IMG/VR virus record: IMGVR_UViG_3300045988_012275
DNA from: a virus
Length of the DNA: 35,690 nt
Strand: one strand, 5' to 3'
A program made the position numbers and the translations under genes. Under the pieces are notes generated by a model. The model saw only the letters and a program-made list of their open reading frames with translations, was not told the DNA's origin and did not search any database. Position 1 is the stretch's first letter; every line of letters begins with the position of its first letter. Shown piece after piece: positions 13,883-16,268 of the stretch.

Positions 13883-15070
13883 TTAATACTCCTCTAATAG
13901 CCCACTTTCTGGGTTTTTTAGCCATTCTAAAACTGCTTCCTGACTCATGTGCTCAACCTTCCACGTTGGATTATTTGTTATTGCATAGTCTTCGAACGCA
14001 TACATAGCGTCATAGAAAGCATCTATAAGGGCATCCACAACGTCAATCTTGTATGTAGATTTCATTTTATCTACTTGGATACCGATGTTATCTTCTTTGA
14101 TTACAGCATTTATCAAGGCTTTTCGCATGATTTCATCATCACGACGTGTGATATTTCCTTCAATAAATAGTGTTTGAAGGAATTTTGTAGGGTCTTTCAG
14201 CTCGCTTGTTCGTTGTCTAATCGGCATTAATGGGAAGCTAGTGTTAGATTCCAATGCTTTGATAATCTTTGAAACTCCCATAGCGTCATATCCGAAAAAG
14301 ACAACGTCAAGCTGATTATCTTCCACGTACTCACAGAACCAACGATACACTTCCTCTGGGTTAATAAGTCCTTGTGGATGGCTTGTAATCGTACAGTAGC
14401 CTTTCTGTTCCAAGTCTCGATAATTAACACCATCCTGTTCCATCTTGGCTTCTAACGAGCCAGCTTGTTGCCACGGTATGAAACTGTGCTGTTCTATGTG
14501 CCATTTCTGATTGCCGTCCTCGGAAACGTACGGATAGACGAAACCAATGGCTGTATTATCGCTAAACATTGAAGCATCCAATCCGACATATACACGCTTT
14601 CCCTTGATATCAAATTCATCAATGACTGCATTTTCGATATCACTTAAATCAAGAAAGCTGTTGCTGTCAGCAAGCAGCCAGCAGTTCATGTTTTTGACTT
14701 GGAAGTCGGCGAGGTTACCGCTTAATAGGTCGCTATCCCTTTTATCCATCAACCCTTTCATAAGGTTGTCACGCTCTTGTTCCAAGTCTAAAAGCGGATT
14801 GCTTTTCACCCACGTTTCTGGTTGAAAGACCTCGTCTAAGTTGTCTTGTGACCATACCAAGCAAAGGTATGTATCAGCATCTCTATTGTCGTCATCTTCC
14901 ATGGCTTGTTGCATGATTTTTTGGTCTTCCCTAAATGGTACAGACGGATTCGGGTAGGCAGTGGAAATTTGGATGAATTGTCTGTTTGGAACTTTTACTT
15001 GCCCAGAAACAATCTTAGAAACCGCATCCCTTGTTTCAATTTCTCCAATTTCATCAAAAATAGCGGTTGT
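13883..15070 (-). CDS. terL: Large terminase, C-terminal segment (Walker B plus nuclease); the frame is open from 15070 but the first ATG is at 14914
   Basis: The frame reads TTAIFDEIGEIETRDAVSKIVSGQVKVPNRQFIQISTAYPNPSVPFREDQKIMQQAMEDDD... The Walker-B-like IFDE lies upstream of the first ATG, so the track ORF (343 aa) is truncated. A TGA at 15073-15071 closes this frame upstream. Confidence 0.85.
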   Translation of the reverse strand, partial: TTAIFDEIGEIETRDAVSKIVSGQVKVPNRQFIQISTAYPNPSVPFREDQKIMQQAMEDDDNRDADTYLCLVWSQDNLDEVFQPETWVKSNPLLDLEQERDNLMKGLMDKRDSDLLSGNLADFQVKNMNCWLLADSNSFLDLSDIENAVIDEFDIKGKRVYVGLDASMFSDNTAIGFVYPYVSEDGNQKWHIEQHSFIPWQQAGSLEAKMEQDGVNYRDLEQKGYCTITSHPQGLINPEEVYRWFCEYVEDNQLDVVFFGYDAMGVSKIIKALESNTSFPLMPIRQRTSELKDPTKFLQTLFIEGNITRRDDEIMRKALINAVIKEDNIGIQVDKMKSTYKIDVVDALIDAFYDAMYAFEDYAITNNPTWKVEHMSQEAVLEWLKNPESGLLEEY

Positions 15071-15074
15071 TCAT

Positions 15075-15764
15075 TCAAGTAAAATGAAAACTATCATATT
15101 GCCCACTCACAGCAGATATAGCTCTTAAAACGTTGTTGCTTGCTTTCATTATTACTTGGTCACTATGCAGACCCAATTCAGTCTCAACTGCCAAGCTTTT
15201 GAAAGGTTCATTCTGAATTATCTGCTTCATCATGGATTTGATGTAGCCAAGTAATTTATTTGTTTGTTTAAAGTTAATTGAAGTAACGAGGTAGTCTTGG
15301 TTTGACAAACCCAAACTTTCAATGAAGTATGAATACGCCGTAAGAATAGCCATCAGATACGTTTTACCTTGCCCACGTCCGACCGAAACAATGGCACGAC
15401 TAAATCGTTTACCACCGTTTGCGTTTCTCCATCCGAAAAGCATACATAGGATGAATTTTTGCCAAGGCATCAGTTGTGTAGGCTCACCAGTGTCGACGTT
15501 CGGACATATCCTAGCGAAACGCAATAATTTGTCCGCTTCAGTCGTTTCATAGGTATATGGAAAGTCGTCGTTACCTTGCCTTTGTAGGTCTCGTAAGTGC
15601 CTGAAACATGCCAATTTAATCATGTATCCAGCCATGATTCGACCTTCCAAGACATCAAAGCAATATTTTGTGCCGTCGTCTTGATATTTTTTGGCGATGT
15701 CAGTGAAGTCAAATTCCTTATACGCCGAATCTATATCATGAGTTTTTATCAGATTTGTTTTCAT
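15075..15764 (-). CDS. terL: Large terminase, N-terminal ATPase segment (229 aa), ending at a premature TGA
   Basis: The Walker A motif is VGRGQGKT. The segment ends ...SGQYDSFHFT* where Terminase_1-family proteins continue directly into the Walker B motif. Confidence 0.85.
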   Translation of the reverse strand: MKTNLIKTHDIDSAYKEFDFTDIAKKYQDDGTKYCFDVLEGRIMAGYMIKLACFRHLRDLQRQGNDDFPYTYETTEADKLLRFARICPNVDTGEPTQLMPWQKFILCMLFGWRNANGGKRFSRAIVSVGRGQGKTYLMAILTAYSYFIESLGLSNQDYLVTSINFKQTNKLLGYIKSMMKQIIQNEPFKSLAVETELGLHSDQVIMKASNNVLRAISAVSGQYDSFHFT

Positions 15765-15806: not shown

Positions 15807-16268
15807 TTAATTACCCAAAAATTCTTTCATCATATCACCTAGAGACTGATTTTCCGATTGAGTACCTGCAATTTCAGCCAATTCCGCACGTCCTTTAGGA
15901 GTCAGTCCAAGTTGGATACCTATCTTATTAAGAGTATCAGTTGCATCTTTCATCACCACAACTGCTGGATTCTTTTTGAAACCTAAGAACTGCTCACCGA
16001 GAATTTCACCAGAGCCTTGCGCTTGAATTGGCTTCTTCATTTCCTGTTGAATCCCATTTTCTTTAATGTCTTCATAAGCAAGCTTGTAAATTTCATAATT
16101 CGTACAGTAGGTTTCAACCAAGAACGTATCGATACGTTCTACCTTGTTTGTATTCTCTAAAAACGGAATGATTTTGCGCCAAATCTCCCTCGCTACTGTT
16201 CCTAAGTAGTTTGGTGGGTCGCTTGGTAACCGCCCATTGTTCTGCTGATAATACGGATTCTTAACCAC
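15807..16268 (-). CDS. terS: Small terminase subunit (P27-like family)
   Basis: The 153-aa ORF has a GTG start at 16268 and lies immediately upstream of terL. The motif VAREIWRKIIPFLENTNKVERIDTFLVETYC is typical of P27-family TerS. Confidence 0.8.
   Translation of the reverse strand: MVKNPYYQQNNGRLPSDPPNYLGTVAREIWRKIIPFLENTNKVERIDTFLVETYCTNYEIYKLAYEDIKENGIQQEMKKPIQAQGSGEILGEQFLGFKKNPAVVVMKDATDTLNKIGIQLGLTPKGRAELAEIAGTQSENQSLGDMMKEFLGN

Follow-up and report, generated by a model that had tools for sequence, protein, structure and literature searches.

A conserved 10-nt gap in the large terminase gene of Streptococcus phages, a candidate site of translational bypassing

Natural bypassing is known from few systems, namely gene 60 of phage T4 and its homologues, yeast mitochondria and, as a candidate, the Streptomyces phage phiHau3 (Hau3). 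Here we describe a gap of 10 nucleotides (nt) in the large terminase gene (terL) of IMG/VR virus record IMGVR_UViG_3300045988_012275, a stretch of 35,690 nt that is referred to as the window. The window is a Moineauvirus genome (cos-type, Sfi21/DT1-like) with about 90% identity to phage SW12, and it is absent from the phage collection searched. The best explanation of its terL is a single gene interrupted by a 10-nt non-coding gap, ACTTGAATGA (15071..15080, minus strand). Judged from the sequence, full-length TerL is very probably made through recoding at this site. The route is probably a hop of peptidyl-tRNA-Thr from an ACU codon to an ACN codon 10 nt downstream.

The closest described case is the Hau3 terminase, whose two 10-nt coding gaps are candidates for bypassing (Smith et al. 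2013, as cited in PMC10732093; review PMC5009743). Read from the genome (JX182369; L073 380-410 and 690-720), with slashes setting off the spacers, these are GGC/UUACUCC/GGU-AAG and UCU/UUAACGG/UCC-ACG. Both phages have a 10-nt insert in a TerL gene that consists of a 7-nt spacer and a duplicated synonymous codon, a layout for a hop of +10 from the take-off codon, across a spacer whose first codon is slow, to a synonymous landing codon. In both, the flanks are contiguous in relatives that lack the gap. When UUA in the first Hau3 gap was replaced by UAA, the junction peptide was detected by mass spectrometry in E. coli, and a +1-frame UGA put into the same gap doubled recoding (PMC10732093). 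This +1-frame UGA, engineered in Hau3, occurs naturally in the Streptococcus gap. The second Hau3 gap (..EGARS/TFVVLNE) lies one codon from the Streptococcus gap (..SFHFT/TAIFDE), just ahead of Walker B, which is either a coincidence or the mark of a preferred insertion site. In all four gaps (two in Hau3, the 10-nt gap, and a 5-nt form described below), direct reading of the sequence places the landing codon at the first cognate triplet 3' of take-off. The two systems differ at the A site, which in Hau3 holds a rare sense codon, UUA, dependent on the bldA tRNA and tied to host development, whereas in the Streptococcus phages a stop codon, UGA, takes this place. The gaps have unrelated sequences, and the hosts belong to different phyla. 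The Streptococcus case also differs in its natural polymorphism, with and without the gap, and in its 5-nt sister form. Such gaps were present in 3 of the 100 terminase genes analysed in PMC10732093, as against about 100 records here.

Other bypassing systems are more distant. T4 gene 60 resembles the Streptococcus locus in having a stop codon after take-off, a matched landing codon and an essential gene as its setting. A mobile homing-endonuclease gene, mobA, accompanies its gap (PMC5009743), and a homing-endonuclease-like gene lies upstream of terL in a subset of carriers. However, the gene 60 gap is 50 nt long instead of 10, it depends on a nascent-peptide signal and defined stem-loops, to which nothing comparable was detected here, and the sequences are non-homologous. 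As cited in PMC5009743 and PMC10732093, the synthetic stop-hops and +5/+6 hops of E. coli (Weiss et al. 1987) also involve a peptidyl-tRNA that leaves a stop-adjacent codon for a nearby cognate codon, and hops of this size take place without elaborate signals. Those hops are engineered and of low efficiency, whereas the Streptococcus gap is natural, conserved and located in an essential gene. The 'byps' of Magnusiomyces capitatus mitochondria (Lang et al. 2014, as cited in PMC10732093) are likewise short insertions in essential genes that are skipped in translation, but they are read by mitochondrial ribosomes, measure 27-55 nt, are structured and occur in many copies per genome. A full-text literature search found no published description of the Streptococcus terL gap, which is mentioned neither in a 40-genome survey of S. 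thermophilus phages (PMC5601072) nor in the recoding review (PMC5009743). The cases named in a December 2024 preprint on bypassing from the Atkins laboratory are gene 60, 'a phage terminase gene' and Magnusiomyces, and no others. Provided that bypass occurs, the Streptococcus terL gap would be a further and apparently unreported case of a very small known class.

Layout of the interrupted terL gene

The minus strand of the window reads CAT TTT ACT TGA ATG A ACA ACC GCT from 15086 to 15062. A first-pass annotation, made from the letters alone, had described a terL split here by two close TGA codons, and the sequence and the open reading frames (ORFs) bear this out in every detail. The Walker A frame ends at the TGA at 15077-15075, as stated there, and this is the stop of a 229-aa ORF (15764..15075) that contains GRGQGKT. 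The 229 codons of this 5' segment (15078..15764, minus strand) encode the N-terminal two thirds of the ATPase domain and end with the proposed take-off codon. Walker A, residues 129-135 (15360..15380, minus strand), aligns with the SIARKNGKT region of HK97 TerL (PDB 6z6d). The frame of Walker B and the nuclease is shut by the second TGA (15071..15073, minus strand) and is open from ACA at 15070 to its stop at 13883. Its first canonical start is the ATG at 14912..14914 (minus strand), 156 nt past the gap and 3' of Walker B, a placement given correctly in the first reading and re-examined with GTG and TTG included. Most records annotate a 'second TerL' from this ATG.

The elements of the gap can be read in order along the minus strand. 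The proposed take-off codon, ACU for threonine (15078..15080), is always ACT in the aligned carriers. It is followed by the UGA that stops the upstream frame and is the proposed occupant of the A site at take-off (15075..15077). The second UGA lies in the +1 frame, which it closes until 15070, and it would terminate any ribosome that had shifted to that frame. The proposed landing codon (15068..15070) is ACA in the window and ACA, ACC or ACT, all for threonine, among the other carriers. The 3' segment runs from the resume codon ACC through the stop (13883..15067) and holds Walker B, the remainder of the ATPase domain and the nuclease domain, as indicated by a TerL_nuclease match and by coding-type substitutions. 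The Walker B strand A-I-F-D-E (15050..15064) begins two codons past the landing codon, where hfttaIFDEiGe aligns with pilaiLDEtGq of HK97 TerL (6z6d). Since the upstream-frame stop lies 5' of the point at which the downstream frame opens, no single frameshift can link the two frames. This claim of the first reading was confirmed for +1, -1, +2 and -2. Programmed +1 or -1 frameshifting was rejected on the same layout: between the end of the upstream frame at 15075 and the opening of the downstream one at 15070 there is no overlap.

Joining the frames, with ACT fused to ACC, gives a product of 623 aa. On it, Pfam places TerL_ATPase at residues 100-267 and TerL_nuclease at residues 292-583. Both terminase domains, with Walker A and Walker B, are complete on the joined product only, which is a large terminase of the Terminase_1 type. 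The separate fragments have a truncated ATPase domain or none, and the 229-aa fragment alone covers positions 1-112 of the 178 of the TerL_ATPase profile. The sole sequence match of the joined product in the PDB is HK97 TerL (6z6d). The gap splits the ATPase domain three residues ahead of the Walker B strand.

Intact alleles define the extent of the extra DNA. The terL of phage CHPC1037 is uninterrupted over 1872 nt and encodes 623 aa. Aligned with the window, it lacks exactly ACTTGAATGA between CATTTT and ACAACG, and it reads HFTTAIFDE. The first-pass annotation had asked for such an alignment, which gives the extra nucleotides directly. It had proposed a 7-nt skip of TGAATGA between ACT and ACA. 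The endpoints stand, but the extra DNA is 10 nt, the take-off codon plus 7 nt (15080-15071). Omission of 7 nt would also add a third threonine, and a 10-nt hop from the P site is the better description. The duplication of TGAA recorded there is present, as TGAATGAA contains TGAA twice. The length of 623 aa, given there for Sfi21-type phages, matches orf623 of Sfi21 and Sfi19 as well as the intact CHPC1037 protein. The product predicted for a hop, ...SFHFT-TAIFDEIGE... with 623 aa, is identical to the protein of the intact allele. A junction peptide beginning SFHFT would have no tryptic N-terminus, and the tryptic peptide to be expected is AISAVSGQYDSFHFTTAIFDEIGEIETR. The proteomics paper PMC7296060 contains no TerL peptide from an S. 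thermophilus phage.

The true small terminase gene (15807..16268, minus strand) is directly upstream of terL and has a Pfam match to Terminase_4. We therefore reject the annotation of the 229-aa ORF as a small terminase subunit in DT1, phage 107 and the S. salivarius prophage YMC-2011; this ORF matches TerL_ATPase, and the real small subunit is encoded upstream. In DT1 (AF085222; L074 1103-2984) the N-terminal terL fragment is annotated as the small subunit. The same is true of phage 107 (L004 535-1442), in which a 73-codon ORF in the third frame is also annotated across the gap. The annotations of both phages look like artefacts produced by the gap. No second copy of terL and no tRNA gene was found in the window. 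A separate observation is the sequence GGAGAAA, 24 nt downstream of the gap (within 15030-15075, minus strand). It fits NNAGAAW, which we take to be the protospacer-adjacent motif of S. thermophilus CRISPR1; if so, the gap would lie at the motif-distal end of a 30-nt protospacer within a strongly conserved part of the gene.

Distribution and conservation of the gap

The gap is widespread in Streptococcus phages. A megablast search with terL returned 208 S. thermophilus phage records, most of them annotated 'terminase large subunit (x2)'. A 33-nt probe that ends inside the insert was covered by 103 Streptococcus phage records in GenBank/RefSeq, and an 89-nt probe separated about 102 records with the insert from about 37 without it, the latter including Sfi21, Sfi19, Abc2, 128 and 73. 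Carriers come from Ireland, Uruguay, Denmark and North America, among other places, and from several laboratories and sequencing technologies. DT1, sequenced in 1999 by Sanger chemistry, carries the insert, and its two pieces are annotated as the 'small' and 'large' terminase subunits. Pattern scans in which the junction was left free found nine further carriers in IMG/VR and four in metagenomes, all with the same 10 nt. The recurrence of unchanged 10 nt in about 103 records and in every metagenomic carrier seen is far past chance. A second group of S. thermophilus phages (7201, P9901, V2, SW1, CHPC1046 and others) has a different terL type, about 53% identical and uninterrupted.

This distribution bears on the simplest alternatives considered in the first reading, a sequencing or assembly error and an inactivating indel in a defective genome. 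The disrupted frame itself speaks for them, and nothing more. The identical insert is present in about 100 independently sequenced phages from several groups and technologies and in metagenomes, and the carriers are virulent, plaque-propagated phages of S. thermophilus (survey PMC5601072). Strong purifying selection acts on both halves of the gene. These findings refute error and pseudogene as explanations, and we regard their remaining probability as negligible.

The gap is more strongly conserved than the gene around it. When 20 carrier and 10 intact terL genes of Moineauvirus are aligned, no indel other than the 10-nt block appears. The 20 carriers differ from each other by 12.4% on average and by 16.8% at most, and they are polymorphic at 87.6% of fourfold-degenerate sites and at 77.7% of third positions, yet all 10 positions of the gap are invariant among them (P of about 1e-9 to 3e-7). 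The gap is also unchanged in the more divergent carriers SW2, VA214, 140, SW7, P7632, SW12 and P9903. The longest invariant run in the whole of terL is AGTTTTCATTTT followed by the gap and AC. The gap and the 12 nt upstream of it are thus wholly invariant among carriers, which hints at a sequence requirement, although the upstream part of the run was partly fixed by the search patterns; the gap itself was not. A recent selective or selfish sweep was judged an unlikely cause of the invariance, as carriers are polymorphic at sites 3 and 6 nt away and none of the neighbouring sites is associated with the presence of the gap.

Substitutions next to the gap follow the downstream frame. The landing codon changes at its third base only: SW7 has ACT, P7632, P9903 and one further carrier (L012) have ACC, and ACA is found in most carriers. 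In the first three codons past the gap (ACN ACN GCT), positions 1 and 2 are the same in all carriers compared. Over the 156 nt from the gap to the first ATG, there are 3, 1 and 41 polymorphic sites at codon positions 1, 2 and 3. The ratio of synonymous to non-synonymous codon differences over the same 156 nt is 2939:202 in the downstream frame, compared with 90:3025 and 164:2983 in the other two. Coding-type substitution from the first post-gap codon argues that in carriers all of the downstream frame past the gap, beginning with the landing or resume codon, is translated. At this point the downstream frame has a UGA immediately upstream and no start codon. Part of the coding constraint may date from time spent in intact genomes, given recombination between carriers and intact alleles.

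These patterns also bear on a model in which TerL consists of two polypeptides, the 229-aa N-terminal fragment and a C-terminal fragment re-initiated after the UGA, that assemble non-covalently. Most records do annotate two TerL ORFs, and the S. salivarius clade described below has an in-frame AUG (the M of AIMDE), annotated as a start, 12 nt past the stop. In Moineauvirus, however, the downstream frame has no ATG, GTG or TTG for 156 nt and no Shine-Dalgarno (SD)-like sequence. The codons ACN ACN GCT are constrained as codons, and translation must therefore begin there or earlier, where only a non-start ACN exists. The break would also sit inside the core beta-strand that leads to Walker B. 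Taken together, these points make a split protein improbable.

Phages of S. salivarius carry a shorter form of the gap. The terL of prophage YMC-2011 has 5 extra nt (ACTTG) relative to the family, at the same codon as the 10-nt gap (CP002889; L075 1400-1460; also L076, L079, L081 and L083-L112). It reads CAC TTT ACT TGA CC AAT GCG ATT ATG GAT GAG. Its upstream ORF is likewise 229 aa long, ends in HFT followed by the stop and is annotated 'putative terminase small subunit'. The layout again comprises a take-off ACU and a UGA in the A site, with a landing ACC or ACT (ACU) that overlaps the stop. A +5 hop (ACU UG/ACC) would yield HFT-NAIMDE, with the length of the intact proteins. The two frames overlap by 16 nt in this form, and no slippery site is present. 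All 24 IMG/VR contigs of the S. salivarius clade have the 5-nt form. They represent 17 distinct haplotypes with a mean divergence of 9.2% and a maximum of 16.6%; 14 of these have ACC as the landing codon and 3 have ACT. Both terL halves in this clade show coding-type substitution and purifying selection. YMC-2011 yields particles upon induction and forms no plaques (PMC10536254), and viability is therefore less well documented for the 5-nt clade.

Proposed bypass and competing routes

In the proposed mechanism, the ribosome would read the upstream frame as far as the threonine codon ACU (15080-15078), with UGA in the A site and slow to be decoded. Peptidyl-tRNA-Thr would un-pair, the mRNA would slide by 10 nt, and the tRNA would re-pair at the first downstream ACN triplet, ACA (15070-15068). 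Decoding would restart at ACC, and the product would be the 623-aa TerL of intact alleles. Ribosomes that terminate at UGA would release the 229-aa fragment. The hop itself, its efficiency and the identity of the tRNA-Thr used are inferred. Because the intact allele differs by exactly the 10 nt of the gap, an ACU-to-ACA hop would restore the wild-type protein.

Several features of the locus are those of bypassing. The gene is split into two ORFs by a short gap, relatives without the gap exist, and the frames do not overlap. The take-off ACU and a landing ACA, ACC or ACU could be read by one and the same peptidyl-tRNA. The landing codon is the first ACN triplet 3' of take-off, and the gap contains no ACN triplet. 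A slow codon, UGA, follows the take-off codon in both the 10-nt and the 5-nt form. By our own arithmetic, the chance that a random 10-mer copies the first two bases of the next codon and places a stop directly after it is about 0.003. The hopping first suggested from the window sequence is supported by these comparisons and fits the invariant insert, the purely synonymous changes in the landing codon and the coding-type evolution at Walker B.

Other recoding routes across the same site are formally possible on the window sequence, and the -1 frame is open for 73 codons across it. They include a 7-nt skip without re-pairing (giving HFTTTA), two frameshifts, a +1 shift combined with read-through of UGA, and re-initiation at the AUG at 15074 followed by a +1 slip at UUU_UGA. 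These routes would add or change residues in the strand ahead of Walker B, whereas the hop gives the intact protein exactly. There is no slippery heptamer, and a +1 shift runs into the UGA within the gap. The route from AUG 15074 was rejected on comparison with SW2, which reads AUU UUC GAC and thereby loses the run of five U and the required UGA. We consider this group of routes very improbable. Removal of the gap from the mRNA by endonuclease cleavage and ligation would also restore the frame. A segment of 10 nt is far smaller than any self-splicing intron, and the site has no Rfam match and no significant structure; the probability of excision appears minute.

A number of results weigh against the ACU-to-ACN hop, or at least leave it without the stimulators found elsewhere. 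The mRNA at the gap folds no better than shuffled sequences (z = 0.24). Folding does give a weak inverted repeat, UUCAUUU/GAAUGAA (15070..15088, minus strand), with the take-off codon in a 5-nt loop. This hairpin is equalled by 36-47% of random 10-mers inserted at the site. It was rejected as a structured bypass signal, being no better than shuffles or random inserts, and a function for it is unsupported. A search of the whole window, the site included, gave no Rfam match, and no conserved SD-like element was found. Comparison of the aligned carriers with the intact alleles revealed no carrier-specific substitution elsewhere in terL. Stop-hops without stimulation are inefficient in E. coli (PMC5009743), so that the phage either needs little TerL or has stimulators that went unseen here. 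The invariance of the spacer bases AUGA has no obvious reason under the hop model. A GGU-type tRNA-Thr would pair better by wobble with codons other than ACA, the commonest landing codon.

Gap turnover and a neighbouring endonuclease-like gene

A tree of the 200 nt flanking the site on either side shows carriers interspersed with intact alleles. M19 and phage 107 (L002/L004) are identical over at least 1049 nt, save for the gap, to a metagenomic contig present twice (L031/L050). Likewise, a sequence inferred to be DT1 (L035) is identical save for the gap to L005 over 878 nt and to CHPC1037 over 836 nt. Such long identical haplotypes that differ by the gap mean that gap status toggles faster than point substitutions build up. 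This rapid toggling suggests either targeted gene conversion or precise reversion under selection.

The same haplotype pairs favour an explanation at the level of DNA, in which precise 10-nt deletions during replication produce revertant copies that supply TerL in trans. Identity over 836 to at least 1049 nt, save for the insert, does mean that gain or loss of the insert outpaces point changes. However, the insert is flanked by a mere 2-nt repeat (AC...AC), so spontaneous precise deletion should be rare, and the consensus genomes of about 100 isolates all keep the insert. Heterogeneity of this kind also offers no reason why selection should hold all 10 bases invariant. We find it highly improbable as the source of TerL.

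In a subset of phages, a 378-aa gene between the small terminase gene and terL encodes a protein with zinc-finger repeats whose C-terminus is nuclease-like, with matches to PHROG 559 'HNH endonuclease' (E = 2e-94) and to phrog_9084 'homing endonuclease'. The copy in phage SW2 (MH892353) is at L113 1443-2579, and homologues are in L049, L094, L033, L068, L070, L017, L075, L084, L090, L102, L108 and L110. In a small and biased sample in which SW2 is counted twice, the gene is present in 7 of 14 carriers of the 10-nt gap, 5 of 18 carriers of the 5-nt form and 1 of 8 intact Moineauvirus, while all 21 intact relatives at a greater distance lack it. Its occurrence is almost confined to clades with the terL gap. 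S. salivarius phages have copies 96% identical to that of SW2, although the TerL of these phages is only about 68% identical to that of SW2 (168-aa junction segment), which marks the gene as mobile. One intact allele (L017) is also accompanied by a variant of it, which weakens the link between endonuclease and gap. This link, which recalls the mobA/gene 60 cassette of T4, may serve as a lead only.

A more specific reading by analogy with T4 mobA is that the 10-nt and 5-nt gaps are immunity marks of a mobile homing-endonuclease cassette. The endonuclease would cut gap-free DNA encoding Walker B, and the gap would block cleavage, spread by break-induced gene conversion and persist through ribosome hopping. 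We consider this reading unlikely. If true, it would explain the presence and absence of the gap on otherwise identical 1-kb haplotypes, and the near-identical position of the Hau3 gap would reflect convergent evolution at a favoured target.

If bypass takes place at the terL gap, it would be a rare natural case, experimentally tractable, in an industrially important genus of dairy phages with good genetics. Near-isogenic natural alleles with and without the gap, together with the 5-nt form, make the requirements for take-off, landing, spacer and stop directly testable in a Gram-positive host. Recognition of the gap corrects the annotation of about 100 phage genomes in which terL is listed as two genes or as a 'small' and a 'large' subunit, as in DT1, phage 107 and YMC-2011. 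It also raises the question of why packaging ATPase genes repeatedly gain short gaps just ahead of Walker B.

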